Positions 21,835 through 42,461 of a stretch of 64,000 bases of DNA are shown in pieces. A program made the position numbers and the translations under genes. Position 1 is the stretch's first letter. Each line of letters begins with the position of its first letter. Source of the stretch: Candidatus Bathyarchaeota archaeon (lineage in GTDB: Archaea > Thermoproteota > Bathyarchaeia > 40CM-2-53-6). Under the pieces are notes generated by a model that was given only the letters and a program-made list of their open reading frames with translations, did not search any database and had not been told where the DNA came from. The DNA lies in contig CAVTBR010000002.1 of assembly GCA_963733055.1 (NCBI GenBank), positions 288,001 to 352,000 on the forward strand, given 5' to 3'.

Positions 21835-22025
21835 TGCCATTCGTCTGGCCGTAGTCGCGCAACCTCCGCTGGGGAGAGGGGTGAGCCACACCCCTCGAAA
21901 AGGGTGGGCCACACCCTTCAGAGGCTGGGCTTGCATGAACGCCTTCAGCTGAAAGTTGTCATTCTGCCAATACAAGGAGGCAGACATTCGTTCGTTGTGG
22001 TTGGGGTTGGAGTGTGGTTGGGACG

Positions 22026-22057: not shown

Positions 22058-22383
22058 GGCGGTGGTAGGAGGATCGGGGAGCCAGCCGTTCCCTGTGACC
22101 CGAAATCGGCTATACGCGGGGACCCGTTAACCCGGGGGAGAGGTAGCTCTGGACTCAGGTAGGCCTTCAGGGTCAACGATGAGATTCTGCCCCACCGGGC
22201 CAGCGTAGGAAGGAACCCTTCTGAAGGGAAGCGTTTACTTCTTCATCGTCGAACCCGATGAGGCTCGGAAGAGAGCAGTCGTAAGGCGAGCGCCCAGGCG
22301 CTGATGGGATCACAGGGTTTAGGAAATTCTGAAGAAACCGCCCGAGCGAAGAATACCAATTCAACGGGGATGCTGCCACCGCC
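22058..22383 (+). ncRNA. ffs: Archaeal SRP (7S) RNA
   Basis: Helix 8 motif GAACCCGATGAGGCTCGGAAGAGAGCAG; 5' GGCGGTGGTAG pairs with 3' CTGCCACCGCC; about 326 nt. Confidence 0.9.
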
Positions 22384-22637
22384 ATAATCCGAATGATTGT
22401 AGGTTTTGGTTCTGACGCTCAATAGTGAAAGTGAAGTATGCTTTAGCGGCAATGTGGTGCTTTAGAGTTAGGAAATCTCTTTTTGCCAGCAGAAGAATGA
22501 AAGAACGTTCAAGCTGACATCCAACCTGCTGTACGTTACGGTCGGCTTCTCGCTCGTAGAACAGTAAGTGGTTGATGTTGATTCAGAACGTTTCTAAGCG
22601 GAGCAGCTAGGTAATCTTAAATTCTCAGCACAGAAAA

Positions 22638-23498
22638 GTGGGGAAGGGGTTTGGTCTGGCTTTGTGGAGTAGGCGCATTCTTTTCGGCCTCAGCCTCCTC
22701 CTAGCCCTAACGTTCATAACACCCGTCCACAGCTCCCCAACCCTATCCATAGACGGCTCCGGCTCAAACTCCTGCCCAGGACATAACTCATGCACTTCAT
22801 CCGCGTTCTCAACCAGCAACCCGAATGACGTGGTAATCGTCTTCGCAGTCTCCACGGGTTCCTCTTTCAATGGCCTGCCTACGGCTAGTGGTCTAAGTTT
22901 CACGGTAAGACTGTCTACGACATTCCCACCTGGTCATTTTGTGGGTGAGTGGTGGGCCATAGCCTCCACAACCCTCGCAGCGGAAACGGTTACAGTCCAC
23001 ACAACATCAACATCCACAAGTATCGGGTTGGTTGTGTGGGGTATAAGCGGAGCGAATACCGCAACCCCCTTCGACCCTTCATTGCCCTCGCCAGCAACAA
23101 GCAGCGGCACAACTCCCAGCTGTTCTCCTAGTCCTCCTTGCTCGGCTTCGATTAGCGTAACGATTCCGTCAACCTCAAACGCTAACGACATGATACTCGG
23201 CATGGCAGGTAACAATCGCGGGGACACGTCTTCGGCTGGGTCGGGAGGGTTCACTCTAATAGCAGGCCCCGCCTTCGCCGGTGCTGAGTTTAAGGTCGTA
23301 TCCTCCACGCAGAGCAGCCTCTCCGTCCCAATAACCCTCAACGACGACAACGGTGGAGTTTTCTGGGGTATGTTTGGGGACGCCGTACAAGCCGCGTCAG
23401 CCACTCCACCAATCCCAGAATACCCGCTAGGATTACCGATACTAGCAATCCTCACCATAATTGCATACGGCGTAATCAGACGCCGAACACGAAACTAA
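22638..23498 (+). CDS. Secreted Ser/Thr-rich surface protein with PEF-like C-terminal sorting signal
   Basis: Signal peptide; C-terminal IPEYP + TM + RRRTRN. Confidence 0.8.
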   Translation: MGKGFGLALWSRRILFGLSLLLALTFITPVHSSPTLSIDGSGSNSCPGHNSCTSSAFSTSNPNDVVIVFAVSTGSSFNGLPTASGLSFTVRLSTTFPPGHFVGEWWAIASTTLAAETVTVHTTSTSTSIGLVVWGISGANTATPFDPSLPSPATSSGTTPSCSPSPPCSASISVTIPSTSNANDMILGMAGNNRGDTSSAGSGGFTLIAGPAFAGAEFKVVSSTQSSLSVPITLNDDNGGVFWGMFGDAVQAASATPPIPEYPLGLPILAILTIIAYGVIRRRTRN

Positions 23499-23601
23499 GC
23501 CCGAGTCATCAACCGACTGGTAACAGCCCAAAGAATTTGAAGCATCAACCGTGAAGGTAACCTTACCGAATCGAGCATCTATTAATGAAAACAGGAATAG
23601 G

Positions 23602-23617
23602 TGCTGCCACCGCCATA
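23602..23617 (+). repeat. att-like direct repeat of SRP RNA 3' end (copy 2)
   Basis: TGCTGCCACCGCCATA, identical to 22371-22386 (16/16). Confidence 0.85.
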
Positions 23618-23741
23618 CATCATGTACCGACGATATCAGTGAATTCAAAACCGATTGGTCGCACAGCTTAACGCTGTCCCATTTCATTGTACGGTTAATG
23701 TTCGCGGTGAAAGACCTGGGGTACATCCTCTAGATTGAATT

Positions 23742-24212
23742 TCAAGGTCTGTTTGAGGGCTGCTTTCCTTCCGTGTCTAATTCTCGAACTTTTGTTTCGA
23801 TGAACTCGATGATCTTCCGTTCCCCATACTGCTTCGCGTCCTGTTGTCTGACCAAGTTTTCCCGGATGGCATCGAGAAGCACCTCTGTTTTCGCGGGCTT
23901 AATTATATAGCGATCTGCGCGTTTGTTTACGGCCTCGACAGCATTCTGCAGGCTTGGGTACCCGGTTACGATTATCTTGATCATCCTCGGCGCCGTCTCC
24001 TTGAGGGCTGTTAGCAGTTTTGTGCCTTCCATGTCCGGGAGGCGGATGTCGATTAGGGCGACATTGTAGAAGTTGTCCTCAGATTTCTCTATAGCATCGC
24101 TCCCAGTCTCTGCTGTATCTACGATGTACCCAGCCTCCTTCAATACCGTAGAGAACGTTTTCAGAATCTCTCGATCATCATCGACAATCAAAATCCTAGC
24201 CGAGTCGCTCAT
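23742..24212 (-). CDS. Response regulator receiver protein
   Basis: ILIVDDD, LIDIRLPD, VTG, YIIKP. Confidence 0.93.
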   Translation of the reverse strand: MSDSARILIVDDDREILKTFSTVLKEAGYIVDTAETGSDAIEKSEDNFYNVALIDIRLPDMEGTKLLTALKETAPRMIKIIVTGYPSLQNAVEAVNKRADRYIIKPAKTEVLLDAIRENLVRQQDAKQYGERKIIEFIETKVRELDTEGKQPSNRP

Positions 24213-27200
24213 GTCCCTTCAGCTCCCTGTTGACCCCTTATCAGGGGAAACTTTAGCGTGAAGGTCGTGCCTATTCCTTCCCTGCTCTCCACGGATATCG
24301 AACCTTTGTGCGAATCCACGATACGCTTGCAAATAGCCAAACCCAATCCGATTCCCTTAGGTTTTGTGGTAATTAGGGGTTTCCAAAGTTCCCGCAGTAC
24401 GTTTTCAGGAATACCTACTCCGGTATCTGAAAGTTTGAGTTCGACCCAGTTATTTGACTTATTGCTGGTTATTTCGAGTTTGCCGCCGTTCGGCATCGCC
24501 TCGACCGCATTCTTGATGAGGTTGACGATCACACGTCTGACCATGGCCGCGTCAACATTTAACCTCGGGTCGTCGGATGTCGAATCCATAACGGATATGT
24601 TCTCTGGAATCTTCACTTGGAGAAATGCATCACTTACCATCGATCTGGGAGTCGTTTCTGAGAGTTCCAACTGAGTGTCTTCCGAATATCCTAGGAGGTC
24701 ATCTACGATTCTGTCCGAGTACTGGACACTGTTCTCGATTGCTTCAAGCATCTCTTTAATTTTCTCATCGGCTATAGGAGCTAGTTTCTTCTCTAGGACG
24801 TATAATGCTGCAGAAATCGCCTGTAATGGATTGCGAAGGTCGTGGCCGACCATCGCCGCTGTCTCTCCGATTGCTGCCAGCCGCTCAGCCTTGCGCAGCC
24901 TTTCTTCAATCTCCTTTCGTTCAGTAATGTTCGTTGTCACTCCATCGGTGTACCGTACCCCATTTATCTCGTAGGTCTTGTTCGCGCTCTCATGAAGCCA
25001 GACCCATTTACCGTCAGTTCGTTGGAATCTGTAATCCACATCGAACAATTTGCCCTCTGTGAAGAGGAGTTCATAAGCCCTTTCGATAATGGGAAGGTCG
25101 TCCGGATGAATCCTCTCCTTCCAGACGTGGTAACCGCCGGTATAGACCTGATCGAGGCTGTATCCATACACCTCCCCGACGTTTGGAGTGATGAAAATAG
25201 TATTCCATTCCTGATCTGTTGTCCATACTACAACGGGGACGTTCTGGACGACAGAACGGTATTTGGCCTCACTGTCTCTTAGAGCGCCTGTTCTTTCTTC
25301 AATCAAATTCTCCAAGGTCTCAGCGCGCCGCATGTTCTCAACGGCAATCGCAGCGTGGTTGGCGAAGAGCATCAGTAAATCAAGATCCGATTGCGTGAAG
25401 CGTCGAGTTGCAGACTTCCTTATGACTTGAATTACTCCTGTTACTTGGCCTCGCCAAATCATGGGCACGCTGATCTCAGCCCCGAGGTCTCTAGCTCCAG
25501 AAATACTTACGGCACTCTCCCATTTGTTGTAATCATCGATTATGAGAGGTTTTCCGGTCTCAGCCACGCGGCCGGAGGACCCCTCACCATACTTGAGCAC
25601 AACTCCCCTGAAATCATGCGGCGTGTTGTAGCTTACCACACAACGCACCTGTCGCTTTTCAGAGTCACATAGGTCAAGTCCTCCGCCCTGTCCGTCTAAT
25701 AGGCGAACAGCTCGCTCCACAATGGACTCTAGCAGGTTTGGCAAATCACCTCGCGCTCCTGTAATGTCTAGCACGATTGCCTGAAGCGCAGCCAGTTCCT
25801 CGGCATGACGCTGCAGCTGCTCCTGCGCTTGCGTGCTCTCGACTGCTATGGCGGCGTGGTTGGCGAAGAGTTCTAGCAACTTGAGATCGGATTCCGTGAA
25901 ATGCCCTACCTCATCGTTTAGGACGTCGATAACCCCGATAACTTGACCCTGCCATAGCATGGGTGCGCTAAGGACAGCTCTGAAAGGTTGATCTTTCTCA
26001 TAGGCCGCTGCACGCCCCTCCCATGTGCGGTAGTCTTCGATAATCAGGGGTTGCCCATTCTCTGCCACCTTCCCTGCCGCACCTTCGCCATACTTGAGCA
26101 CTGTTCCGACAGCGCTTTTTCTAGTGTTGTAACTGACCGCACATCGTGCTTCCCGCCTATCAGGATCACAAATATACATTCCTCCGCTGGGAGCGCCGAC
26201 CAGTCCTGCTGCTCGTTCCACGATGGCGTTAAGCAGGGTGGGCAGATCTTGTCGACGAGTAATGTCAAGGAGGGTTGCCTGAAGCGCCTGTAGCTCTTCG
26301 GCCCGGCGATGCAGAGTCTCCTCAACACGCTTTTGATCGCTCATATCAATTATGGTGACGGCGTCCGCAGGTTTTCCGTGGAATGTGATGCGCTCCGCCC
26401 GGATGACCACGGGATATTCAATCCCGTCACGGGTCAGGGCGTTGATCTCGTAGGGCTGGACATGTTCTCCGCGTAATCGTCTTGCCATGTTTTGAGTAAT
26501 GAGGTCTCGGAATCTCGCCGGGACTAGTTTGTCGAACAGGTTGAATGACGGGGAGGTCATTTCTTCAAAAGTCCAACCTGTTTTTTCACACGCAGCCCTG
26601 TTGACATATTTCATGCGGCCGTCTTGTAGAATGGAGATCATGTTTGATGAATTCTCAACTATCGCGCGGTATTTCTCCTCGCTTTCGATTATATTCTCCT
26701 CCATCTGCTTGCGTTCGGTGACGTCCCGGAAACTCCACACTCTACCAAGAATATCTTCTCTCATTCGCTGTGGTTGCGAGTAACGCTCGAAGACTCTACC
26801 ATCCTTGAACCTGAGAGTGTCAAACGATTCCTTTTTCGGCGTAGAATACAATTCCTGCACCTTCGCAAGAAACTGCTCCGGATGCTCGAGCTGATCCAAG
26901 ACAAACTCCAGGAGCTTCGCGTCATTTTTCGTTTCCAGAAGTGGATCAGGTATACGCCACAATTCGGCGAATCTTCGATTGTAGGTTGTTACCTTCCCAT
27001 TCCTATCAACCACAAGGATTCCATCGGCGGTCGAATCGAGAGTAGCGATCTGTAATGAGAGAGACGCGTGGAGGGTTTCGTCTCTTCTCAGTCTGCTCAT
27101 TGCGGAACCAACGTGTGTTCCCAACGTTTCAAGCAGTTTCTGATCCTCATCTGAAAACGCTTTCAAGCGTTTACTTTCCACATTCAGGACACCTACGGCC

Positions 27201-27727
27201 TCCCGGTCCAAGATTACGGGTACAGCCAGCTCGGAAAGCATCGACGCTTTCCCTGTCCAATTGAAACCCATTCGATCTACGTAGGCCTTTTCCTTCCTCA
27301 CATCTGAGACTCTCACCGTTGCCTTCTTCCTTGCGGCTTTGACTACCACTCCTTTTCCGTCTAATGGCATTTCAAGGAAGGTTGCCTTGATTCCCTTGCT
27401 TCCTTTGATTCGTAGGCATCCATGTTCAACGAAGAGGATATCAGCGAAATCGAAACCGAGTGCGGACCGCATTGCATTCAAAGTGTATTCTGCTATCGCC
27501 TCACGAGTTGGGGCCCCGTTCAATTGCAATGCATGACTGTGGAGTACCAGAAGCTTCTCCTGGTACCCCACGCGCCTTCGTCTCACCGGCTTCGAGACTA
27601 CGGCCCTTCGTTTTCCTTGTTTCAAATTCCCGTCGACACTCTTGAACACGGATGTCTTAACACAGATGTTCCTCAATGGGCGAAGGTTATGTCGAAAACG
27701 CAGTTTTGGCTGCCCAGTGAGGCGCAT
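24209..27727 (-). CDS. Cytoplasmic multi-sensor histidine kinase (GAF-PAS-PAS-GAF-GAF-PAS-HisKA-HATPase); true start probably about 27600
   Basis: GHDLRNPL, NLIKNAVEAM, DTGVGI, GIGLGLAI; repeated GAF (FTESDL..L..FANHAAIAVE) and PAS units. Confidence 0.92.
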   Translation of the reverse strand: MRLTGQPKLRFRHNLRPLRNICVKTSVFKSVDGNLKQGKRRAVVSKPVRRRRVGYQEKLLVLHSHALQLNGAPTREAIAEYTLNAMRSALGFDFADILFVEHGCLRIKGSKGIKATFLEMPLDGKGVVVKAARKKATVRVSDVRKEKAYVDRMGFNWTGKASMLSELAVPVILDREAVGVLNVESKRLKAFSDEDQKLLETLGTHVGSAMSRLRRDETLHASLSLQIATLDSTADGILVVDRNGKVTTYNRRFAELWRIPDPLLETKNDAKLLEFVLDQLEHPEQFLAKVQELYSTPKKESFDTLRFKDGRVFERYSQPQRMREDILGRVWSFRDVTERKQMEENIIESEEKYRAIVENSSNMISILQDGRMKYVNRAACEKTGWTFEEMTSPSFNLFDKLVPARFRDLITQNMARRLRGEHVQPYEINALTRDGIEYPVVIRAERITFHGKPADAVTIIDMSDQKRVEETLHRRAEELQALQATLLDITRRQDLPTLLNAIVERAAGLVGAPSGGMYICDPDRREARCAVSYNTRKSAVGTVLKYGEGAAGKVAENGQPLIIEDYRTWEGRAAAYEKDQPFRAVLSAPMLWQGQVIGVIDVLNDEVGHFTESDLKLLELFANHAAIAVESTQAQEQLQRHAEELAALQAIVLDITGARGDLPNLLESIVERAVRLLDGQGGGLDLCDSEKRQVRCVVSYNTPHDFRGVVLKYGEGSSGRVAETGKPLIIDDYNKWESAVSISGARDLGAEISVPMIWRGQVTGVIQVIRKSATRRFTQSDLDLLMLFANHAAIAVENMRRAETLENLIEERTGALRDSEAKYRSVVQNVPVVVWTTDQEWNTIFITPNVGEVYGYSLDQVYTGGYHVWKERIHPDDLPIIERAYELLFTEGKLFDVDYRFQRTDGKWVWLHESANKTYEINGVRYTDGVTTNITERKEIEERLRKAERLAAIGETAAMVGHDLRNPLQAISAALYVLEKKLAPIADEKIKEMLEAIENSVQYSDRIVDDLLGYSEDTQLELSETTPRSMVSDAFLQVKIPENISVMDSTSDDPRLNVDAAMVRRVIVNLIKNAVEAMPNGGKLEITSNKSNNWVELKLSDTGVGIPENVLRELWKPLITTKPKGIGLGLAICKRIVDSHKGSISVESREGIGTTFTLKFPLIRGQQGAEGT

Positions 27728-28191
27728 TCCCTCTCGACGCTGCCGACTGACTTCTTGCCAAGATAAGCCTCAAGCCAGCCAACGACTAGCCCACGGATCA
27801 GATGGCATGTTGGTACTTTGGCCTGACGCTCATGCGATAAAATGCTGTCAGCTATGGAATATGTGTAGATACTCTTCCCATCTTCTTTCCTAGTCTCAGC
27901 CTTGATGATTCTCCCCCAACCTCGAAGTCTAAGAAACCTGTCGCCTAACCTTACAAGATCTTCCTCTGTGTGAATCTCATCTTTCGAATATGCAAACTCC
28001 GACCGCCCTATCTCGGCCCCCATTTGGCCGAGAAGGACAGCACTTACTGCCGGCCCAGCCACGACAACGAGTTTATCGACGAAGCTCTGGAAGGTCTTTG
28101 CTCTGAGAGACATTATACGGATTTTGCCCTCAAGAATCCAACCTTTCTCGACGTCTCGTTCTAGTGGAGGCGTCCCGTTAGATTCGGACAC
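27673..28191 (-). CDS. V4R domain protein
   Basis: RGWG, TCHLIRG, ERECASLGSQNCVF. Confidence 0.85.
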   Translation of the reverse strand: MSESNGTPPLERDVEKGWILEGKIRIMSLRAKTFQSFVDKLVVVAGPAVSAVLLGQMGAEIGRSEFAYSKDEIHTEEDLVRLGDRFLRLRGWGRIIKAETRKEDGKSIYTYSIADSILSHERQAKVPTCHLIRGLVVGWLEAYLGKKSVGSVERECASLGSQNCVFDITFAH

Positions 28192-28357
28192 TGTACCCCT
28201 CTCTCCTTCTTCGACCTCGTGAGTTGTACAAGTGCCATAGGACCCCAGACATCAACGGCCTCATTGAGACAAAATCCACATATAAGATGGGCTTTGTGTG
28301 GAAATCGAGTTAATTAGCACAATCCCGCACCACCCCTCCTAGAGAGGTTCAGTTCTG

Positions 28358-29110
28358 GTGCGTATTGGAGAAATTATCGCTCTTGCTGCTGCCGTTTTTT
28401 CTGCAGCATTTTATGCGCTGGGGCAGGGCACTGAGATTCTAACGTTGTTTTCTAACTATGGTCTCATAGCCTACATGGCAAGCGCGGCGCTCATAGGACT
28501 CGTCGCATACAAGAAACTGGGCCCATCGAAGATTACCAATCTCACCCTCGGTTACGCCATTGGCCTTCTACCCTGGGCAGTTGGCCTAGCAATCTACACG
28601 TACGCCTACTACGTCTCGATGACCGGGTTGTCCTACCTTTCGATAGCCGACGTCTTCTACTTGCTTTCATACCCTCCATGGATTATCAGCGCCGTCCTCA
28701 CGCTGCGAACTGTCCATCGAGCCGTCGGCCGGAATGCTTGGCTTGCCGTAATCGCAACGGGCGTTGTTCTCTATTTACTCGTCGGTGTCTTGGTCATCCC
28801 ACCGTCGATTAGCGATCTTAGTTCGCTGGAAGCTTTCGTTACAGCCCTCTATCCATCATTGGATCTCGCGTTCTTTCTGCTGGTCTTGCCTCTCTTATTC
28901 GCGTTCAGAAAGGGACTGCTAGAGCGGCCCTATGCTTTCATAACGCTCGGAGCTTTGCTTCTAGCACTTGGCGACCTCGCCTACGCGGTTTTGAGTGTCG
29001 CAGGTTTATACTACGACGGACATCCGATGGATCTTCTCCTCTTCGTTGGATGCATTAGCGCCGGTTACGGATTCTGGCGTCAGCAAGCCGACCTGGCTAG
29101 GTTGAAGTGA
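28358..29110 (+). CDS. Polytopic membrane protein (sensor-like)
   Basis: About 8 TMs; SIADVFYLLSYP and YPSLDL motifs resemble integral-membrane sensor domains. Confidence 0.7.
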   Translation: MRIGEIIALAAAVFSAAFYALGQGTEILTLFSNYGLIAYMASAALIGLVAYKKLGPSKITNLTLGYAIGLLPWAVGLAIYTYAYYVSMTGLSYLSIADVFYLLSYPPWIISAVLTLRTVHRAVGRNAWLAVIATGVVLYLLVGVLVIPPSISDLSSLEAFVTALYPSLDLAFFLLVLPLLFAFRKGLLERPYAFITLGALLLALGDLAYAVLSVAGLYYDGHPMDLLLFVGCISAGYGFWRQQADLARLK

Positions 29111-29333
29111 GTCAAAGTACTTGAGTCAGTGCAGTTCACTCTAGTTGCCTTAGAATTCGAACTTCGTCTTTGGCCCTACCCAAACCGAGTTCACACTCGG
29201 GCGTAACCATTGCAAACCGCGGCCTTCCGGATATCGCATCCCGAGATCGGTCTATGCGATTATGTTTGATTCGTATTGTCCTGTTAGAGGCTTTCCTTCG
29301 GTGAACCTGCTCGCGGAAAACGGTGTCATGCTT

Positions 29334-29742
29334 TCAGGTTTGTTGCCGCTCAGAACGAATTGAGCCATGCGTTTTCCTACAAGCAAGCTTCTTGATGATA
29401 AACACTAGGCCGACCGCCACAATAGAAATCCCCGCATACTGAAGCGGGAATATCACCGCCATCACGACCAACGCGAAAAGCGGGTTGGGGAGAACGACCG
29501 CCAGCAACGCGGCCATCGTTCCAAGAACAGCCCCAGGCGCGGGAACCCCTGGGAACAGCACGGTAACTGCCAATCCGAGCGCTGCACTGCTGAACATTAA
29601 TGGGAAGAACTGACCGCCTTTCCAGCCGCCTGCCAGCAGCACGTTGATCAGAAATAGGCGCGCCAGTGCGATGAGAAATAGCGACCAGAAACCCAGTTGA
29701 ACCGCGTCGTCGTAAGCCGGCTGAAACTGATGCTGCCACCGC
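29334..29742 (-). pseudogene. ClC chloride-channel family, C-terminal fragment only
   Basis: GWKGGQFFP selectivity-filter-like motif and TMs; N-terminal two thirds missing. Confidence 0.7.
29729..29742 (+). repeat. att-like direct repeat of SRP RNA 3' end (copy 3)
   Basis: GATGCTGCCACCGC, identical to 22369-22382 (14/14). Confidence 0.7.
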
Positions 29743-29898
29743 GTTTCCACACTTGCTAAAGCTGAAAGGTGCCCACGAAACTTGTGAAAGCAAATTGGGT
29801 ATGTAATATGCTAGGGTTTCCGACAAAAGATGTCGGCGCAAATTCGCTGCGGTCATGTCAGTAAAGCTTAGGTGGGTACGGAATCAGTCTTTTGTCTC

Positions 29899-30498
29899 AT
29901 GAGTTCGAAGCTTCCAAAGTACTCGACGAGGGAATTATCGTCGAAAACATGGAGAGATTTCGAGAGACTATTCCGGAAGCCTGGCGAATGGTGCAATTGT
30001 CAGTGTATGTACTTTCATCGACAGGGGCCCGTGCCCGATAAAGGGAGACAACGGTTGACCGCTAAGGAGAGGAACGAGAAGAACTTCAACGACAAGAGAG
30101 ACCTCGTGAAAGAAGGGCTCTCTCACGGCATACTGGTCTACTCGGATGGGGAGGCGATAGGGTGGTGTCAATACGGCCTCAAGGAAGAACTGCCGCGAAT
30201 CGACCATACACCCCAGTACCGCAAGGTATCCCTCGACAGAGGAGGGAGGAAACTATGGAGGATTACCTGTTTCTGCGTCGACAAAAAATATCGCAATCGC
30301 GGGGTGGCAATCGCCGGCCTACATGCCGCAATGGGCTCGATACGGAAGAAGGGAGGGGGACTGGTCGAAGCCTATCCAACCACTCGCAAAAGCGTATTGG
30401 CGGCCCACCGCGGAACGGTGCCGATGTTCAAGAACGAAGGATTCGATCTCGTGACTCCCCTCGGCAAAGGCAACGTTCTGATGCGGCGGACAATCTAG
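29899..30498 (+). CDS. GNAT family acetyltransferase
   Basis: TWRDFERLF, CQCMY, IGWCQYG, ITCFCV..YRNRGVA, VEAYP. Confidence 0.88.
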   Translation: MSSKLPKYSTRELSSKTWRDFERLFRKPGEWCNCQCMYFHRQGPVPDKGRQRLTAKERNEKNFNDKRDLVKEGLSHGILVYSDGEAIGWCQYGLKEELPRIDHTPQYRKVSLDRGGRKLWRITCFCVDKKYRNRGVAIAGLHAAMGSIRKKGGGLVEAYPTTRKSVLAAHRGTVPMFKNEGFDLVTPLGKGNVLMRRTI

Positions 30499-30802
30499 CA
30501 ATTCACGGTCTGCGGAAGCGGTTTTTGGGATTCCGCCCAGGAGGCTTGTCGTTCGTTGAGTACTAAGCCTATAGAAACAAGCGGATGTACTTGCGCCGAA
30601 AGATGAATCCCTTCGAACCCTCGAGTGACCGTCCCCACGACAAAACAACCCCAAAGAGAAAGGTCGTCAGCAAATTCGTATGGAAGAACATTAGGAAGGC
30701 TATCGGAAGAGACGAAGCAAAAGAACAGATTCGTAGCGGTGTTTCGCGGTGTTGGGGGGCCTTTTGCGAAAGGCTCGCAAGTGTCGTCATCACCGGTGAA
30801 TT

Positions 30803-30826
30803 TTCAACGGGCATGCTGCCATCGCC
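30803..30826 (+). repeat. att-like direct repeat of SRP RNA 3' end (copy 4)
   Basis: TTCAACGGGCATGCTGCCATCGCC vs 22360-22383 TTCAACGGGGATGCTGCCACCGCC (22/24). Confidence 0.85.
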
Positions 30827-30935
30827 GTTTAATTATCCGTTGGAAGCTGTGAGATTTTGCAACGTAAGCAGTCGTGGTCGGAATGTCTGGGAAGATTTAA
30901 CACTCCGGTCATGCAAAGGCGCGCGGTCGATTGAA

Positions 30936-31181
30936 TTGGTTCTAAATCCGGTAATCGTACTGAACCTGCTGTTCGATCTGGGCATACTCCTTCTGAGCAT
31001 TTTCGTTTACAAAGAGAAGAAAAGCCCGTTGGCATTGTGGGTGGCGATTGCTTTCTGCATCTTCGCCCTCTCATACACGCTGACTATTCTGGGACTCGGA
31101 AGTCAAACTATTCTGATTCCGCTCAGGTCGCTCGGTTACTTGTCCGTCATGGCCGGCCTCATTCTACAACTGAAAAAGTGA
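30936..31181 (+). CDS. Small 3-TM membrane protein
   Basis: Hydrophobic C-terminal 81 aa of ORF 30585-31181; start reassigned. Confidence 0.6.
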   Translation: MVLNPVIVLNLLFDLGILLLSIFVYKEKKSPLALWVAIAFCIFALSYTLTILGLGSQTILIPLRSLGYLSVMAGLILQLKK

Positions 31182-32673
31182 CCGTGATTGGCCCATGCTC
31201 TTTCGTCTTCGAAAGAAGACCACGCTTAGCAAGCCAAAGGCGACACCCAGCCCGATGCTCACCAATGAGAACGCTGGGATGGGGAGAAACCTTGTTCCGC
31301 TCGTCGTAGTCGTCACTGTGGTTGTATTTGCTGGGAAGGGATACAACGGGAGTACGAGCGGTGCGCGGGGGCTCTGTGTGAAGTCGAAGTCTTGCATCAA
31401 ATCTCCTAAGAGTGGCGAGTTTTCGCGTACATCGGGTCTCGAGTCGGGTCTTCCATCGTTATTCGGGTCCAGGCGTTGACCGTTTAGGAAGATGTCTTCA
31501 ATGAATTTCAGGTAGGAGTCGAAGCTTAGGTTCTGGTGGTCAATGAAACCCTGTTTCGCGTAGGGGCTAATCACGATTGCTGGAACAGCGGAAGCCGTAG
31601 CCGTTCTGGTCCGCGACTGGTGGCACGACGTGATCGTAGAAACCGCCCCAGTCATCCCAGGTGAGGAAAATTGCGGTGGTGCCCCATTCAGGACTTTGCA
31701 TTATCGCGTTCACCAGACCCGTCACGTAAGCCTGCCCGCGACTCACTAGAGACGGCGGATGCTCACTATCCCTCCCGTTTGGTATAATCCATGAAACCGA
31801 CGGCAACGTCCCATTGTCCAACGCCGCGTAAAGGTTCTTGAGATTCTGAACGTTCGCCAACTGCGCGTCTTGATGTACTGTCTGAAAGTCTGGAAGCGGA
31901 TTCCAGATCTCAGGAACTCCAGTAGGGTTAGTCACAGTCGCGCAATCGCCATCATAACAATCATCAGGGTCTCTAGTGGCGCCTCCATCGACGTAGTAAG
32001 CCCAGCTGACATTGTGTTTCGACAGCAGATACGTGACATCAGTCCACGCATACCCTGCCGTGTGGTTCGCGTATTTGCGATCGGGTTGATTCAGATTGCT
32101 TACACAACTCATAGGGTCTTGTGGACTGGTGCATGACGCCGACCATCCCGAGACGAGGTAGAGGTGGGAGGGCAGACTCCATGAGGCGACCGGCTCGAAC
32201 ATATGATCCTGCAGAACAAAGTTGTTCGCATATGCCCAGTAGTTTGGTATCTGGCTTCCATCGTGGTAACCCATAACGTCGGGCGGGACACTTGGGTTGC
32301 ACTCCGGGTTGTTTGGGTGGGTGGTGCAATCCGCTATCGCCTGCCCAATGAAACCGTCAAGTTTCCCGCCGTCTAAGTCAGCGACAGAATCTGAAGCGGC
32401 ATGAGGGCCGCCAATGTTGAGATCATTCGGGTCCCTGTACGGCTTAACGCAGGCTCCAGTCAAGGGGTCTGGAACGCAGACGGTTGGCACGCCATTTTGC
32501 ATCGGAATCCCATCCGCTCCCGGGTAAGTGCCAAAGTAAGAATCAAAGGAGCGGTTCTCCTGCATGATAATTATAACATGTTGAATGGGATTGGTCGGGG
32601 CTGAGGCGCCTGATGAAATCGAGACACTGCTAACAAGGAGAACAGTTGCAACCAACAATGCAATCAGCTTCAC
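31164..32673 (-). CDS. Phospholipase C/phosphoesterase family exported enzyme with C-terminal membrane anchor (+1 indel about 31587)
   Basis: IMQENRSFDSYFG, TWDDWGGFYDHV, GFR/VPAIVISPY split across frames; tail IPAFS-TM-RRRK. Confidence 0.88.
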
Positions 32674-32808
32674 AGTGTTCCACTCCGTTTAGGGTTCCCT
32701 GCAAAATAGCGGCGAGAACAAAAATCCTTGTGGACGAATCATCCATGACACTCACTCTTCCCAACCTCCGCCCAATGGAATGAGGGGCCTTCTACACTTT
32801 GCATTGCA

Positions 32809-33981
32809 TCATGCGATTATGTTCGACTCGTAATGCCCAGCAAGCGACTTCCCTTCGATGAACCTGTTAGCGGAGAATGGAGCTAGGCTGTCAGGCTTGT
32901 TGCGGCTCAGAACGAATTGAGCCATCCGTTTTCCCACTGCGGGAGAGAGTTTGAAGCCATGGCCACTGAAGCCAGCGGCTATGTACAACCCCTCGACCTC
33001 TGAGGATTCATCAAGAATCGGGTGCCAATCAGGAGTCACATCGTAGGCTCCCGCCCAACCCCTCTCCCACCGCCCACGAGCCATCGCGGGTAAACGGTTT
33101 ACGAGTTTCTTAGAGTAGATTTCGACGGTTTCGTAATCAACACCCTCGCAATTGTCTGGGTCAGCGACCTCCGGTAAGTTCGACTCCAACGACCCAGTAA
33201 GAAGCCTATCGGGCCCTTTGGGGCAGAAGTAGAAGCCGCTTGTGAAGTCGCCCCAAACGGTCAATTTCGTTGTCAAGTCAGGAGGCTTGAGGAAGATGCA
33301 ACTCTGTTCCTTCAGAACACGAATTGGAAGTTTCGAGTGTTCCGGAGGCATGATCTGATTAGCCCAAGCGTTCGCAGCGTTCACGACCCGACCGGCCGCT
33401 ATCTCACCCTTCTCAGTCCGAACTCCTCTGACCTTGCCTGCAGATTCCAAGATCTCCAAAACTTTCGTCTGCTCAAGGATGTTGACCCCTAGTTTCTCCG
33501 CTGCTTTAGCGAAAGATTGGGTGGTTGCGACGGGGTCGGCGTATCCTGAACGAGGTTCATACGCAGCAGCGGCTAATCCCTCAACATTAGCATCTGGCTG
33601 AAGCTTCTTCAGCTCCGCGGGCTCGAGGACGGACGTCTCAATGCCCAAGCTCCGCTGCATCTTCACATTACTGCGAAGGGCCTCCTCGTCCTTGCTTCCA
33701 ACTGCCAACGTGAAACCGGTTCGCATGAAACTAGCATCTCCTCCGACGGAATCCGGAAAACTCTCGAAAACCTTCAAACTCTCCAAAGCCATCCCGGCCG
33801 TTTCCGGGTTGCTGTAATGTTGGCGAACAATAGCAGTTGATCGACCTGTAGTGCCCCACGCAATATGTTGACGTTCGATGAGAATTATCTTCAGACTAGG
33901 GTTTAGTTTCGCGGCGTGAAAAGCTGTGCTGCAGCCTATGCAGCCGCCACCTACGATTACTATGTCCGCGGAGTCGCTCAT
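32809..33981 (-). CDS. FAD-dependent oxidoreductase (DAO/sarcosine oxidase beta-like)
   Basis: IVGGGCIG, GYADP, YDVTPDWHPI, GFSGHGFKLSP. Confidence 0.9.
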   Translation of the reverse strand: MSDSADIVIVGGGCIGCSTAFHAAKLNPSLKIILIERQHIAWGTTGRSTAIVRQHYSNPETAGMALESLKVFESFPDSVGGDASFMRTGFTLAVGSKDEEALRSNVKMQRSLGIETSVLEPAELKKLQPDANVEGLAAAAYEPRSGYADPVATTQSFAKAAEKLGVNILEQTKVLEILESAGKVRGVRTEKGEIAAGRVVNAANAWANQIMPPEHSKLPIRVLKEQSCIFLKPPDLTTKLTVWGDFTSGFYFCPKGPDRLLTGSLESNLPEVADPDNCEGVDYETVEIYSKKLVNRLPAMARGRWERGWAGAYDVTPDWHPILDESSEVEGLYIAAGFSGHGFKLSPAVGKRMAQFVLSRNKPDSLAPFSANRFIEGKSLAGHYESNIIA

Positions 33982-34153
33982 TGTCCGTACACCGATTGAT
34001 TATCAGCCCGACGGTATATTTACGGTCTCTCAGTGATTCTCGACAGGTAATAGCAAATGCAATCTAAACGGGCGTAAGAGAAACGGTCAGGAGTGTTCTT
34101 TAGTTTCAATTGAAGATGCGCTCGCCATTGCGAGTTGGTCGACGCTGAAGAGT

Positions 34154-35308
34154 TTGATTGACCGCGATGCATACACTTCCCTCTTCTTCTCTAGAACAAT
34201 TTACGCGGTCAACTGGTATAACATCGCAGCTCTTTTCACGTTCATAGCACTCGATTTCAAGCTGAATGTTTCAGGCCTGGGAGTTGTCTCAGCTTGTTTC
34301 TATATTGGCGTCGGATTATTCCAAGTTCCCGGCGGCATCGTTGCAGCCAAGTATGGCGCAAGGAACATAGCTATCGTGGGCGTGCTGATTGCATCGGTCG
34401 CGGTTCTCCTTACCGCCATCACTTCCGATTTCTATCAACTCATTCTACTCAGGTTCATAGTTGGAGTAGGTTCTGCCTTTTTCTTTGCTCCCGGAGTAAC
34501 GTTGATTGCCCGAACTTTTCGGCGAGAGTCTCAGGGATTTGGGGTAGGCACTTTTCAGAGTGCCTTCTACGTTGGTGGGACTCTAGGTCTCTTCGCGTGG
34601 TCGGTTCTGGCCGAGATGGGTGGCTGGAGATTCAGCCTGATAACGAGTGGCGCGTTGAGTCTCTTGGGAGGCGTACTCATTTTCCTAAAGGTCCCGAAGG
34701 ATGAGCTGCGTTCGGACTTCGTAATTAAGACTGAAGATCTGCGTAGGATTCTCTCGAACCGATGGCTAGTTCTGATCTCGATTGAATTGTTCGGGTTCGG
34801 GTCGGGCACGTTTCTCATCAACAGCTTCATGGTATACTACCTTGAACAGTCGCTTCATCTCAGCCCAAGCTTCGCGGGCATAATCGGTAGCCTCGCCCCG
34901 TTATGTGCAATAATCTCTTCGCCACTGTGCGGGATGCTTTACGCTAAGACCAAAAACGCTCGGTTGCTACTCTTCTCTTTGGGAGTGATGTTGGCAGCGG
35001 CATTGGTACTGGACGCTGTAGGCAGCGTACCATTTGCGGCAGTTTCAAGCGTTCTTGCGGGGTTCGGTAGCGGTGCATTCACGGTTGGGTATTTGGCAGC
35101 GCGTGATAGCATGGCCGCGTCAGTCGAATACGAATCCCTGGCGGTCAGCTGGGTAAACACCATTCAGATGCTAGCCGGCTTTGTCTCCCCGATAATATTC
35201 TCCTTACTGGTACTGTCGTTCGGCTACGGGTTTTCATGGTTGACTGGTGGGCTGTACACCTTAGTTCTGATTTCGACGATCCTTTACCCGGTAAGAAGTA
35301 AGCGTTAA
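34154..35308 (+). CDS. MFS transporter
   Basis: 12 TM pattern; GIVAAKYGARN motif-A-like. Confidence 0.88.
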   Translation: MIDRDAYTSLFFSRTIYAVNWYNIAALFTFIALDFKLNVSGLGVVSACFYIGVGLFQVPGGIVAAKYGARNIAIVGVLIASVAVLLTAITSDFYQLILLRFIVGVGSAFFFAPGVTLIARTFRRESQGFGVGTFQSAFYVGGTLGLFAWSVLAEMGGWRFSLITSGALSLLGGVLIFLKVPKDELRSDFVIKTEDLRRILSNRWLVLISIELFGFGSGTFLINSFMVYYLEQSLHLSPSFAGIIGSLAPLCAIISSPLCGMLYAKTKNARLLLFSLGVMLAAALVLDAVGSVPFAAVSSVLAGFGSGAFTVGYLAARDSMAASVEYESLAVSWVNTIQMLAGFVSPIIFSLLVLSFGYGFSWLTGGLYTLVLISTILYPVRSKR

Positions 35309-35406
35309 AGCGAGAGATACCGATAGCTTTCATGTTCCCCTATCTTAACGCTTAATACGGCGAATCCGTTAGCCTATCGAAAATCAACGAACAAGGGTCT
35401 GTGCTC

Positions 35407-35985
35407 ATGAGTAGGAAACCACCTGAGATCAAAGTGTTCGATAAATGGGAAACAGAAAACATCGAGGTCACAGATCCCGGACTGGAGAAGTATCTTTCCT
35501 CCAAACCAATTCTCTACCCTCACAGTGGTGGACGACATGAACACAAGCGCTTCCGCAAGTCCCAGCTGAACATTGTAGAACGCCTCGTCGATAACATGAT
35601 GCGCCCCGGCAGGGTTGGCGGCAAGAAGGCGAAAGCGATTGGGATCGTACGAAACGCTATGGAAATCATCAACCTGAAGACCGGCAGGAACCCGATTGAA
35701 GTTTTGGTCAAAGCGGTTGAGAATACCGCGCCCGCCGAGGACGTTACACGAGTCGCCTACGGTGGAATCGTCTACCCAATCTCAGTTGACATCGCCCCTC
35801 AGAGAAGAATCGATATCGCGCTACGTTTCATGACTGATGGTGCACGCAAGGGGGCTTACAGTAACCCAAAAACTATCGACGAATGCCTCGCCGAAGAACT
35901 CGTGTACGCTTCCCAAAGGGACAATCGAAGCTTCGCGGTGAAGAAACGCGACGAGATGGAACGAGTAGCTTTAGCCTCGCGTTAA
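35407..35985 (+). CDS. rps7: 30S ribosomal protein S7 (uS7)
   Basis: FRKSQLNIVERL, NPIEVLVKAVEN, VDIAPQRRID, KRDEMERVA. Confidence 0.97.
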   Translation: MSRKPPEIKVFDKWETENIEVTDPGLEKYLSSKPILYPHSGGRHEHKRFRKSQLNIVERLVDNMMRPGRVGGKKAKAIGIVRNAMEIINLKTGRNPIEVLVKAVENTAPAEDVTRVAYGGIVYPISVDIAPQRRIDIALRFMTDGARKGAYSNPKTIDECLAEELVYASQRDNRSFAVKKRDEMERVALASR

Positions 35986-36116: not shown

Positions 36117-37442
36117 ATGTCTTCAGCAAAGAAACCGCACCTTAACCTGATCATCATAGGCCACGTCGACCATGGCAAGAGCACCATGACTGGCCACTTG
36201 CTATTCGACACGGGCAACGTGGACGAGAAGACCATCGCCAAGTACGCAGACGAATCAACCAAGCTTGGCAAGGGAGATACTTTCAAGTTCGCATTCGTCC
36301 TCGACACATTGAAGGAAGAGAGAGAACGTGGGGTTACGATCGACCTTCGGTTCGAGAAATTTGAAACTGACAAGGTCTTCTTCACAATCATCGACGCACC
36401 AGGCCATCGGGACTTCATCAAGAACATGATCACAGGCACGAGCCAAGCTGACGCAGCCATACTCGTTGTGTCAGGGAAGAAAGGAGAATTCGAAGTTGGC
36501 GTCGGGCCAGGAGGCCAAAGCCGAGAACACGCCTACCTAGCCAGAACCCTTGGAGTCGCACAACTCGCAGTCGCCATCAACAAGATGGATGACTCCACAG
36601 TCAACTTCTCGGAGGAGAGATTCAAGGAATGCACAAAAGAACTGGAGGCGTTGCTGAAGGTCGTTGGATACGACGTCTCCAAGATTAAATTCGTACCGGT
36701 GTCTGGCTGGAAAGGAGACAACCTGATCAAAGCGTCGCCAAACATGCCATGGTACAAGGGGCCAACTCTACTCGACGTGTTGAACACGTTCACCGAGCCG
36801 CCCAAACCAACTGACAAGCCCCTCCGCGTCCCAGTTCAAGACGTCTACTCAATCACCGGCATCGGCACAGTCCCAGTGGGCCGAGTAGAAACTGGAATCC
36901 TCAAGGTAGGTGATAGCATAGTCTTCATGCCCGCCAACGCAAGAGGCGAGTGCAAAGACATCGAAACCCACCACACTAAGATCCCGGAGGCCCTACCAGG
37001 AGACAACATAGGCTTCAACGTAAGAGGCATCGGGAAGACCGACGTCCACAGGGGCGATGTGGCGGGACACGCAGACAAACCCCCAACCGTCGCAGCCGAA
37101 TTCTTGGGACAAATAATCATAGTCTTCCACCCAACCGCAATAGCGGCAGGTTACACACCAGTGCTCCACGCACACACCGCCACGACCTCGGCCACATTCA
37201 CAGAACTCGTCTCTAAGATGGATGCGCGTACAGGTCAGGTGACTCAAGAGAAGCCGGACTTCCTCAAGACAGGCGATGCGGCCATGGTGAAGATCAGACC
37301 CCTCCGACCGCTTGCAATCGAAGCTTACTCAGATATTCCACAGCTAGGAAGATTCGCAATCCGCGACATGGGCAGCACGGTTGCCGTAGGCGTAGTTAAG
37401 CAGGTCACCGAAAAAGCACAGCTGTCTGAGAAGAAAGCCTAA
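36117..37442 (+). CDS. tuf: Elongation factor 1-alpha
   Basis: GHVDHGKST, ERERGVTID, DAPGHRDF, NKMD, GRFAIRDMG. Confidence 0.98.
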   Translation: MSSAKKPHLNLIIIGHVDHGKSTMTGHLLFDTGNVDEKTIAKYADESTKLGKGDTFKFAFVLDTLKEERERGVTIDLRFEKFETDKVFFTIIDAPGHRDFIKNMITGTSQADAAILVVSGKKGEFEVGVGPGGQSREHAYLARTLGVAQLAVAINKMDDSTVNFSEERFKECTKELEALLKVVGYDVSKIKFVPVSGWKGDNLIKASPNMPWYKGPTLLDVLNTFTEPPKPTDKPLRVPVQDVYSITGIGTVPVGRVETGILKVGDSIVFMPANARGECKDIETHHTKIPEALPGDNIGFNVRGIGKTDVHRGDVAGHADKPPTVAAEFLGQIIIVFHPTAIAAGYTPVLHAHTATTSATFTELVSKMDARTGQVTQEKPDFLKTGDAAMVKIRPLRPLAIEAYSDIPQLGRFAIRDMGSTVAVGVVKQVTEKAQLSEKKA

Positions 37443-42297: not shown

Positions 42298-42461
42298 GCG
42301 GGGATACCAGAGCCAGGTCAAATGGGCGGGTCGCGTGCCCTTTCATGCCTACGCTTGGCCACGCGCGCTACACTCAAGATTCACGGACGTGCAGGCTTTG
42401 TGGCGGGTGAGCTATCCCGTGGCGTAGGCCTTCGTGGGTTCGAATCCCACTCCCCGCACCA
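42298..42461 (+). tRNA. tRNA-Leu(CAA) with two introns (42331-42371 at 30/31; 42379-42413 at 37/38), CCA encoded
   Basis: Acceptor GCGGGGA/TCCCCGC-ACCA, GGTTCGAATCC T-arm, long variable arm; intron removal gives CGGGA-CTCAAGA-TCCCG; both junctions form BHB-like motifs. Confidence 0.92.

Follow-up and report, generated by a model that had tools for sequence, protein, structure and literature searches.

The SRP RNA gene and the array behind it

The DNA analysed here is a window of 64,000 nt from Candidatus Bathyarchaeota archaeon (GCA_963733055.1, contig CAVTBR010000002.1, positions 288,001-352,000 of the forward strand), and all positions below count within it. G000 denotes the genome under study, a 2.88-Mb assembly from a soil archaeon; other G-numbers denote its relatives and L-numbers the loci compared. 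The window contains an intact SRP RNA gene, an inserted array of ~8.4 kb that begins 5 nt 3' of the gene, an older variable flank, and the genes for ribosomal protein S7 and EF-1 alpha, which in most relatives are the conserved core genes directly 3' of SRP RNA (Table 1). In G000, 13.0 kb separate the SRP RNA gene from the start of S7. The array and its flanks have the same G+C content.

Table 1. Features of the SRP RNA locus of G000 (window positions)
Feature	Position	Strand	Remarks
SRP RNA gene, full length, intact	22060-22381	+	Rfam RF01857, 154.8 bits, model 1-317
Reference repeat (gene-side junction)	22371-22386	+	Last 11 nt of the gene and 5 nt behind it
Block 1	22387-23572	+	One ORF, 22638-23498; secreted or surface protein, PE-Y-P / hydrophobic / basic tail
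Copy 1 unit	23573-23617	+	Left arm 23573-23583, 12-nt spacer 23584-23595, right arm 23596-23606; repeat 23602-23617 (16/16)
Block 2, composite	23618-29728	both	
Receiver (block 2)	23742-24212	-	Pfam
GAF/PAS histidine kinase (block 2)	24209-27727	-	Pfam
V4R protein (block 2)	27673-28191	-	Pfam
Membrane protein (block 2)	28358-29110	+	
Relic of DAO gene 3' end (block 2)	29242-29380		
ClC fragment (block 2)	29334-29750	-	Pfam
Copy 2	29729-29742	+	14/14; no palindromic arm
Block 3	29743-30787	+	GNAT acetyltransferase, 29872-30498; Pfam PF00583
Copy 3 unit, far border of the array	30788-30826	+	11-6-11 palindrome (30788-30798, 30799-30804, 30805-30815), then remaining SRP end to 30826; repeat 30803-30826 (22/24)
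Older variable flank	30852-35308		Partly common to G013, G019, L107
Small membrane ORF	~30852-31181		
Split phosphoesterase pseudogene	31164-32673	-	
DAO oxidoreductase	32809-33981	-	
MFS transporter	34154-35308	+	
Ribosomal protein S7	35401-35985	+	Pfam, synteny
EF-1 alpha	36117-37442	+	Pfam, synteny

An earlier note, made from the letters of this DNA, had claimed that the SRP RNA 3' end recurs three times downstream in the same orientation, and all three copies were confirmed at the lengths and matches it gave. The 16-mer used as reference extends 5 nt beyond the Rfam gene end. With up to 3 mismatches it finds 5 matches in the window against 0.39 expected, a count reached by none of 100 shuffles; two of the 5 are the end of the gene itself and, on the opposite strand, the 5' partner in its helix. 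Nor is the motif spread across the 2.88-Mb genome, where a single further 16/16 copy (C1:843065-843080) lies on the opposite strand within the coding sequence of an adenine deaminase C-domain and is read as a coding coincidence. As a control, each of 16 same-genus relatives was searched by blastn-short against its own 5-20 kb around SRP RNA. One match of at least 13 nt was returned, in G004, and it is itself a real insertion; the remaining matches are 8-12-mers, or 13-14 nt with one mismatch.

The cargo calls of the earlier note stood in part. The receiver, GAF/PAS kinase, V4R protein, ClC fragment and GNAT acetyltransferase are supported by Pfam, whereas the block 1 protein, called 'PEF-type', has no Pfam or NCBIfam match; at the DNA level, its C-terminal tail matches a dozen other loci of the genome. 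Block 1 is missing 3' of SRP RNA in 16/16 same-genus relatives compared. Block 2 additionally holds the DAO relic, which the note had missed. For the ClC fragment, no homologue was found in 58 family genomes, and its nearest named relative is bacterial. Copy 2, which the note took for a divider between cassettes, is not a clean border: its left 7 nt are conserved Q-H-Q codons of the ClC gene and its right 7 nt are a remaining copy of the SRP end, a composition that suggests a deletion junction inside a foreign, truncated ClC gene.

Palindromic arms adjoining the repeats

Copies 1 and 3 both carry 11-nt inverted arms, which the earlier note had missed, with spacers of 12 and 6 nt, respectively. 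The arms of copy 1 are symmetric at 9/11 positions (10/11 counting G-T) and those of copy 3 at 8/11. The form with a 6-nt spacer is laid out like a dif site, over 28 bp, and is found again at eight further loci. Across 8 units of this copy-3 type, the 11-6-11 register pairs in 87.5% of cells, compared with 31.8-51.1% when the partner arm is slid. Moreover, 4 of the 11 pairs change on both sides, and only 2 of 500 shuffles reach the covariation score.

Both kinds of arm recur outside G000. The copy 1 arm and core are found twice in G019 (G019:C58:437 and G019:C73:2271), and the copy 3 arm recurs in G016, L099, L105, L088, L230 and L239, with different cargo. Six distinct units lie away from any SRP gene, namely L099 (= L127), L105, L088, L230, L239 (= L090) and the copy-1-type unit in G019:C73; the L099 unit is near purA, and those of L105 and L088 are near TBP. 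In L230, 26 nt are identical to the SRP end and flank of G013 and differ from the resident SRP end of the same genome, and the L099 unit carries ~50 nt of another genome's SRP flank. Copy 3, compared by eye, matches the SRP end of G018/G021 at 26/28 positions and that of G000 itself at 23/28. The fit of the L230 unit and copy 3 to the SRP ends of other genomes suggests that such units were imported rather than copied in place.

Empty and occupied sites in relatives

The downstream regions of SRP RNA in related genomes bear out the note's claim that the gene end is a repeated insertion site, with both empty sites and different cargo present. In 13 of 16 same-genus genomes, S7 begins 79-541 nt after SRP RNA; the distance is 4.1 kb in G013, 1.7 kb in G022 and 7.0 kb in G004. 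In a second genus, the gap is ~205 nt in 6/6 genomes that have SRP RNA and S7 on one contig. Many of the relatives are fragmented MAGs. The closest relative, G013, whose SRP RNA is 94.7% identical, lacks the 8.4-kb array, because its alignment to G000 breaks at 22386 and returns at 30882; copy 3 thus forms the border of the insertion relative to G013.

Independent inserts with different cargo occupy the SRP RNA end in G004, L107 and L113; every one of them has SRP-end copies of its own and, at the far end, a copy-3-type unit. The 7-kb insert of G004 has the palindrome and a 13/13 SRP-end copy ~110 nt before S7. That of L107 (4.99 kb) has an 18-nt repeat with one mismatch (17/18), matching 16-nt inverted ends and, at its right end, a fully symmetric 11-6-11 site; by Pfam, its cargo consists only of a GNAT, an ADH, a Cys/Met PLP enzyme and a nitronate monooxygenase. 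L113 contains three same-strand SRP-end copies, at +32, +600 and +1576. In G000, G004, L107 and L113, the position of the insert borders in the gene agrees to within a few nucleotides. Judged by these sequence comparisons, the stretch between SRP RNA and S7 is an insertion hot spot in this Bathyarchaeia genus.

Search for a recombinase

In agreement with the earlier note, the array contains no recognizable recombinase: a PF00589 scan of G000 gave no match between SRP RNA and S7, the nearest being at 46711-47865, behind a tRNA-Ser gene. With the six tyrosine recombinases of G000 as queries, jackhmmer found none in the G004 or L107 inserts, none beside any unit in loci L037-L148, and none in L090, L223, L230 or L239; Pfam applied to the ORFs of the inserts returned cargo and no recombinase. 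Neither an integrase nor a fragment of one was found in the SRP-linked inserts examined (G000, G004, G013, G022, L107 and L113), results that rest on the integrase matches listed, beyond which 19 further matches exist. None of the six G000 enzymes reaches the NCBIfam XerA cut-off (best 68.8 bits vs 220), and the one at 46711-47865 scores 21.7 bits with TIGR02249, for which the cut-off is 265. That the inserts consistently lack a recombinase points to mobilization in trans.

The tRNA-Ser gene just mentioned (42298-42461) bears an intron and has a classical integrase island behind it, with integrases and a 26/26 repeat of the tRNA end, in contrast to the SRP array in the same window; the island had gone unnoticed in the earlier note.

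A casposon or other transposon with terminal inverted repeats was considered and rejected. The G000 blocks have no such repeats (scores of 13-16 vs a random mean of 14.5), and L107, with its inverted ends, encodes no transposase or Cas1-like ORF by Pfam.

Origin of the array

We propose, with about even confidence, that the array consists of non-autonomous cargo modules inserted at the SRP RNA 3' end by a putative tyrosine recombinase acting in trans, and eroded thereafter. At least three site-specific insertions would then have followed one another, with the three repeats marking their far-side (attR-type) junctions. Each incoming module would have carried a copy of the SRP RNA end adjoining a palindromic core, composed of the 11-nt inverted arms and an AT-rich spacer of 6 or 12 nt. 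By recombining with the gene end, the module would have come to lie behind a gene that remained whole, and the previous end copy would have been shifted downstream. The modules themselves would be ordinary cargo devoid of a recombinase, and the acting enzyme would be encoded elsewhere. Subsequent erosion may have cost copy 2 its arm, through a deletion joining it to the interior of the foreign ClC gene, and further decay near the array would account for the DAO 3'-end relic and the phosphoesterase pseudogene.

Several observations count against this reading. Simple integration at SRP RNA does not predict the six SRP-distant units. In G000, the palindrome has no other copy and its motif is not enriched; copy 2 and the gene-side junction at 22387 have no arm. 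The blocks, moreover, have no terminal inverted repeats, and the array matches its flanks in G+C content. No free or circular form and no virus or plasmid bearing attP was found. The integrase acting in trans that the earlier note had postulated has likewise found no enzyme to go with it: no recombinase could be linked to these sites.

A more specific version, possible though short of an even chance in our estimate, is a gene-capture system without a resident integrase. Each of its modules would bear a dif-like palindrome of 28 bp, the right arm of which forms the beginning of the SRP RNA 3' end, and a tyrosine recombinase encoded in trans, on the chromosome or elsewhere, would insert them serially. 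Such a system might be the archaeal equivalent of integron cassettes or of elements that exploit Xer, and its modules would also move between this site and other islands.

Among the rival explanations, erosion of classical islands fares best, and we consider it somewhat unlikely. Elements with their own tyrosine integrase would have integrated in tandem at the SRP RNA 3' end, their integrases and most of their genes being deleted later. Decay is indeed evident in the ClC fragment, the DAO relic, the phosphoesterase pseudogene and the apparent deletion junction at copy 2, and a homologue of the block 3 GNAT (72% identical) lies ~1.5 kb from an integrase-like fragment in G019:C16. Integrase loss after integration and tandem integration are both mentioned for archaea (PMC8371274), and integrase-bearing islands at bacterial ffs are known (PMC12540744). 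Nevertheless, neither the SRP-linked inserts examined nor the neighbourhoods of the SRP-distant units retain an integrase, and the L107 insert, fresh in appearance by its near-perfect repeat, symmetric site and inverted ends, holds cargo only.

We regard it as improbable that no dedicated recombinase took part at all. On this account, homologous or illegitimate recombination with the DNA of relatives would have brought in the cargo, SRP-end copies would have travelled in the flanks, and the palindromes would be hairpins, serving as terminators or protein sites and unconnected with insertion. The host-like G+C content and host paralogues of the cargo fit such an origin, as do the foreign SRP flank in L099, the SRP end and flank of another species in L230, and an origin of copy 2 by microhomology deletion; the highly conserved SRP RNA, S7 and EF-1 alpha genes could anchor homologous recombination. 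Homologous exchange, however, does not duplicate the gene end in the same orientation at every block border, and it leaves unexplained the matching inverted ends of L107, the compensating changes that keep the 11-6-11 sites symmetric, and the border nucleotides shared by G000, G004, L107 and L113. Chance similarity of the three copies to the SRP RNA gene deserves almost no credence: the additional 16/16 genomic copy does fall in coding sequence by coincidence and 7 of the 14 nt of copy 2 are conserved ClC codons, but neither the shuffles nor the 16 relatives yield comparable matches by chance, the three copies share one strand and are confined to the 8.5 kb that follow the gene, and copy 3 sits exactly at the insertion border relative to G013.

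Significance and comparison with known systems

The ends of tRNA genes are textbook sites of integration. The inserts described here would add a second class of essential RNA gene repeatedly used as a landing pad, in an abundant, uncultured lineage of soil archaea, and provide a short, defined candidate recombination site (11-6-11) common to inserts of several genomes. For the SRP RNA gene, docking appears to have been first published in 2025, in the case of a single bacterial phage (PMC12540744), and our literature search found no paper reporting integration into the SRP RNA gene in archaea. Should cargo modules indeed be inserted in trans at this gene end, the locus would open a concrete route to studying the exchange of accessory genes by Bathyarchaeia, from sensor kinases, transporters and acetyltransferases to a ClC fragment, and would also provide a candidate site-specific integration system for a group without genetic tools.

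Tyrosine integrases place islands and proviruses, including tandem arrays, in the 3' ends of tRNA and tmRNA genes (PMC6563490 for Thaumarchaeota; PMC8371274 for archaea in general). The SRP array resembles these islands in several ways: a small RNA gene is entered at its 3' end yet left intact, same-strand gene-end repeats mark the borders, relatives have empty sites, and the site is re-used to form arrays. It differs in its target, which the main texts of both papers mention 0 times, and in the lack of an integrase in any insert seen; moreover, the SRP repeat is short (14-24 nt) and adjoins a site with 11-nt inverted arms instead of an integrase gene.

The closest precedent for the target is phage phiEf11, which integrates into ffs, the 4.5S/SRP RNA gene of Enterococcus faecalis, with crossover in the 3' part of the gene (PMC12540744). 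The attachment site is thus the same part of the same gene. PhiEf11, however, is a bacterial case and a complete prophage: it encodes an integrase of its own, 74 nt away from attP, its core measures 27 nt, and its integration alters the 3' end of ffs (PMC12540744). In the present archaeal host, by contrast, modules free of an integrase are lined up in an array and have left the end of the gene unaltered.

To our knowledge, no integrative mobile element exploiting Xer (IMEX) has been described in archaea. IMEX use host Xer recombinases at dif (PMC5357621), a site of 11-bp arms and a 6-bp spacer with an archaeal version, XerA/dif (PMC2958812). Like IMEX, the modules have no recombinase of their own, carry a site of 28 bp in which inverted arms of 11 nt flank a 6-nt spacer, and build up in tandem at one chromosomal site. 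Unlike IMEX, their site overlaps the SRP RNA gene end and is a dif-like candidate by its layout, with a 12-nt spacer in the copy-1 type; no G000 recombinase attains the XerA cut-off, and the palindrome does not otherwise occur in that genome.

Integrons have been reported in archaeal MAGs (bioRxiv 10.1101/2022.02.06.479319; PMC9668308), and the earlier note had called the accumulation of cassettes integron-like. The description fits in that cargo blocks without mobility genes are split by short, imperfect palindromes and the enzyme would lie outside the blocks. It fails in that no integron integrase and no attI adjoin the array, and in the make-up of the blocks, which do not conform to lone promoterless ORFs of uniform orientation; block 2 comprises four genes on both strands together with two gene relics. 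The palindromes, too, are distinctive, spanning 28-34 nt and each followed by a copy of the host RNA gene end.

Results

Recurrence of the SRP RNA 3' end

As the earlier note had claimed for this window (G000:C2:288001-352000) of the 2.88-Mb, three-contig assembly (G000), the 3' end of the SRP RNA gene recurs three times downstream, each time on the strand of the gene (copies 1 to 3, table). In a shuffle control on the window, five matches to the 16-mer were seen where 0.39 were expected, and none of 100 shuffles reached five. A search of 5-20 kb around the SRP RNA gene in each of 16 same-genus genomes, with the respective SRP RNA end as query, gave a single match of at least 13 nt, in relative G004, and this was later shown to be a genuine insertion border. 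Genome-wide, one further 16/16 copy exists in G000 (C1:843065-843080); it lies on the opposite strand in the coding sequence of an adenine deaminase, without mobile context, and we read it as coincidence rather than as an insertion. A 56-nt sequence some 130 nt before the SRP RNA gene (window 21874-21928) has 86-90% identical copies at C1:1494532, C2:127399, C1:806988 and C1:1107276. The window also holds a 5S rRNA gene (1821-1942, plus strand; RF00001, 82.2 bits).

Features of the array, related units and the tRNA-Ser island (plain positions, window coordinates; G, genomes of the family; L, individual loci, many of them metagenomic)
Feature	Position or location	Strand	Remarks
Archaeal SRP RNA gene, complete	22060-22381	+	Rfam, 154.8 bits
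Reference repeat (final 16 nt)	22371-22386	+	reaches 5 nt beyond Rfam end
Copy 1	23602-23617	+	exact 16-mer match
Copy 2	29729-29742	+	14/14
Copy 3	30803-30826	+	22/24
ClC channel fragment	29334-29750	-	
tRNA-Ser(GCT)	42298-42461	+	78-nt intron; undetected by default ARAGORN
Second integrase of tRNA-Ser island	46711-47865	-	
Copy-1-type unit, first	G019, just upstream of DAO-MFS-S7		
Copy-1-type unit, second	G019, between P-type ATPase and Zn-ribbon gene		
Copy-3-type unit	G016:C11 (locus L223)		
Copy-3-type unit	L239		identical to L090
Copy-3-type unit	L230		
Copy-3-type unit	L088		
Copy-3-type unit	L105		
Copy-3-type unit	L099		identical to L127
Copy-3-type unit	right end of L107 insert		
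Copy-3-type unit	G004, ~110 nt before S7		

The gene calls proposed for the cargo between the copies were confirmed for the receiver, the GAF/PAS histidine kinase, the V4R protein, the 250-aa membrane protein, the ClC fragment and the GNAT protein. The surface protein of block 1 had been called 'PEF-type'; it matched no family, and its C-terminal tail is common to many paralogues. This tail is encoded by the last ~90 nt of the gene (window 23403-23495), and the same DNA recurs at a dozen other G000 loci with 73-83% identity, which points to a paralogue family with a common sorting-signal-like tail. Block 2 was considered as a translocated native module and rejected, as the receiver-kinase pairs of relatives are only paralogous to it (51-79% amino-acid identity) and lack the V4R and membrane genes. 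The blocks of G000 show no terminal inverted repeats above random. Nor is any PF00589 protein encoded between the SRP RNA gene and the S7 gene, in agreement with the absence of a recombinase noted before.

The array is an insertion relative to related genomes

Gene order in the genus is conserved as M50 protease, PP-loop ATPase, SRP RNA, ribosomal protein S7 and EF-1 alpha. The SRP RNA gene lies 79-541 nt from the S7 start in 13 of the 16 same-genus genomes; larger distances separate the two in G022 (1.7 kb), G013 (4.1 kb), G004 (7.0 kb) and G000 (13.0 kb). A second genus of the family has a gap of ~205 nt in all six genomes with both genes on one contig. In a third (g2), SRP RNA and S7 are either separated by 3.6-10.9 kb or face each other from opposite strands, and no integrase lies in these intervals among the matches listed (the family search gave 19 further matches). 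In the closest relative, G013, whose SRP RNA is 94.7% identical, the alignment with the window runs up to 22386 and resumes from 30882 with a small membrane ORF, the DAO oxidoreductase, the MFS transporter and S7; G013 therefore lacks the 8.4 kb that separate the gene end from copy 3, and copy 3 is the far border of the array. Empty sites are thus present in the 13 compact genomes. Five SRP RNA genes of the family stand at contig ends, cut right after the 3' end, and in a sixth genome the gene is represented only by a 5' piece close to where a contig ends; contig breaks behind the gene are an expected assembly effect of a variable site.

In G013, an insert of its own (L051, G013:C19; ~8.5 kb) separates S7 from EF-1 alpha; these two genes are neighbours in G000 and the other relatives. 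A phosphoesterase gene (PF04185; window 31164-32673, minus strand), missing from the corresponding place in G013, is split into two overlapping frames and is likely a pseudogene.

A clean parallel is L107, a metagenome locus with upstream genes syntenic with G000 and an SRP RNA 94.8% identical. Its insert measures 4.99 kb, and the SRP end at 8771-8788 is repeated, with one mismatch, at 13780-13797; an MFS gene starts no more than ~150 nt beyond the repeated end. The right junction is a site with 11-nt arms around a 6-nt spacer (11-6-11), symmetric throughout, the left junction has the identical right arm behind the last 11 nt of the gene, and the insert ends are 16-nt inverted repeats of one another. 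The cargo consists of a GNAT gene, a Zn-ADH fragment, a Cys/Met PLP enzyme and a nitronate monooxygenase, and a Pfam search of the ORFs found no mobility gene. Another locus, L113, repeats the SRP end three more times on the same strand (at +32, +600 and +1576), with AT-rich 6-nt spacers in two of these copies. Among the matches listed, downstream copies of the SRP end occur at 2 of 15 SRP-bearing metagenome loci, many of which extend less than 3 kb downstream, and opposite-strand copies at none of the 15. The 7-kb insert of G004 encodes a HAD hydrolase, a DUF4062 protein and ORFs without an assigned family.

Palindromic units at the repeats

At copy 1, two inverted arms of 11 nt flank a 12-nt spacer, and the second arm extends into the repeat (9 of 11 positions symmetric); the same combination of arm and core occurs twice in G019. 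Copy 3 has the 11-6-11 form (30788-30815), followed by the remaining SRP end, and units of this type recur at other loci (table). Over eight units, the arms are complementary at 87.5% of positions, and shifting the partner by one to three columns lowers this to 31.8-51.1%; 4 of the 11 pairs change on both sides, with a covariation score reached by 2 of 500 shuffles. The palindrome is not enriched in G000, either as a genome-wide motif or as a dif site of this genome: there are no exact 11-6-11 occurrences and one with a single mismatch, and control patterns behave alike. A split (SSV-type) integrase running through copy 3 was also rejected, as ORF 30585-31181 matches no integrase family and its G016 counterpart has upstream stops in all frames.

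Copy 2 lies within the ClC fragment. Homologues of this fragment were absent from 58 other family genomes at E <= 1e-5; its nearest relatives are ~390-aa ClC proteins with 63-76% identity, one of them named as from an Anaerolineales bacterium, and the fragment may be cross-domain DNA. In the alignment, ClC homology reaches the conserved Q-H-Q and ends there. The left 7 nt of copy 2 are the Q-H-Q codons, and its right 7 nt and the following four bases are not ClC; the same four bases follow copy 3. Since ClC homology stops at Q-H-Q and the right half is foreign to ClC, copy 2 would be a deletion junction, most plausibly the remainder of a copy-3-like unit after loss of its arm, the deletion presumably having fused this unit with the inner part of the ClC gene through 7 nt of microhomology. 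Beside it lies a relic of a DAO gene 3' end (29242-29380, 127-139 nt), which duplicates 32811-32937 and is 81% identical to the DAO gene of G000 itself and 87.5% to that of G019.

Several units carry sequence from another genome or lie away from an SRP RNA gene. The unit at L230 matches the SRP end and flank of G013 exactly over 26 nt, and the resident SRP end of its genome differs. Compared by eye, copy 3 agrees with the SRP ends of G018 and G021 at 26 of 28 positions and with that of G000 itself at 23 of 28. At L099, ~50 nt resemble the SRP flank of locus L100, yet the unit is located between pyrG and purA, and the units of L105 and L088 are near a TBP gene. Judged by sequence, units appear to move between genomes. 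Those away from the SRP RNA gene run counter to the prediction of simple integration, and we can only guess that modules are exchanged between islands; no tRNA genes were found at these loci.

L099 has extra DNA at the same purA site. Upstream of purA in G000, an 87-nt stretch (C2:121640-121726) contains words that look by eye like the C and D boxes of a small RNA; in G019 (L068, G019:C73) the stretch is the direct repeat bounding an 8-kb island with Na/H exchanger, ClC and P-type ATPase genes, blocks of which are 95% identical to G000:C2:397160-399817 and 406550-407313.

Of the at least 120 stretches from a metagenome motif search, 80 were listed; the SRP RNA body is missing from 65 of these, most of which are chance matches in G+C-rich coding DNA. 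A separate motif scan gave 51 stretches, three in Bathyarchaeia records, the other 48 (bacterial or unassigned) being taken as chance. Two IMG/VR scans yielded no virus or plasmid contig bearing the site: the 2 and 18 stretches have unrelated flanks, all lie in contigs of 46-72% G+C, and none extends into the remaining SRP end; Rfam found no SRP RNA in the two stretches of the first scan. One soil run (X1) contains short contigs identical to array parts, one of which bridges copy 2; a further contig, with 97.7% identity, extends from the SRP RNA gene to block 1. Among the low-depth contigs of the soil runs, which are uninformative on excision, none links one repeat to another.

Recombinases of the genome

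G000 encodes six PF00589 proteins. None of the six passes the NCBIfam equivalog cut-off for XerA (best 68.8 bits against 220), and in jackhmmer searches with all six, neither the SRP-linked inserts nor the neighbourhoods of the units scanned yielded a relative. The nearest recombinases to the SRP RNA gene are only those behind tRNA-Ser(GCT). This tRNA gene marks a synteny break against all relatives, with an integrase or integrase fragment directly behind it in G014 and G017, and an exact copy of its final 26 nt (26/26) lies 79 kb downstream at C2:409286-409311, within the start of an integrase ORF. The locus is a classical integrase island; in contrast to the SRP array, the same genome thus keeps integrases where elements bring their own.

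Discussion

There is good support for repeated, site-specific insertion at the end of the SRP RNA gene. As to how the modules moved, the best fit is that they are non-autonomous and were mobilized in trans, to which we give about even chances; recombinase genes are wholly absent from the inserts examined, above all from the fresh-looking L107 insert. Next come ordinary islands that lost integrases of their own, which we consider possible but less likely. As integration at a 3' end displaces older ends, block 1 is likely the newest arrival and copy 3 the oldest, an order that fits identities of 16/16 for copy 1 and 22/24 for copy 3.

Insertion at an SRP RNA gene is known as a kind. A 2025 article presents the integration of phage phiEf11 into bacterial ffs as the first case to be verified, and it also mentions predicted ffs islands in pneumococci (PMC12540744). 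The main texts of a thaumarchaeal mobile-element survey (PMC6563490) and an archaeal recombinase review (PMC8371274) do not mention SRP, and literature searches on attachment sites in SRP or 7S RNA genes of archaea yielded no relevant paper. Unrecognised SRP RNA targets may be hidden among the 15 'intergenic' integration targets of the thaumarchaeal survey. The dif sites of bacteria and archaea are described as having 11-nt arms and a 6-nt spacer (PMC2958812), and the copy-3-type units have the same 11-6-11 layout. New here are the use of SRP RNA as a target in this lineage, the presence of an array, and a conserved dif-like core that occurs without any recombinase.
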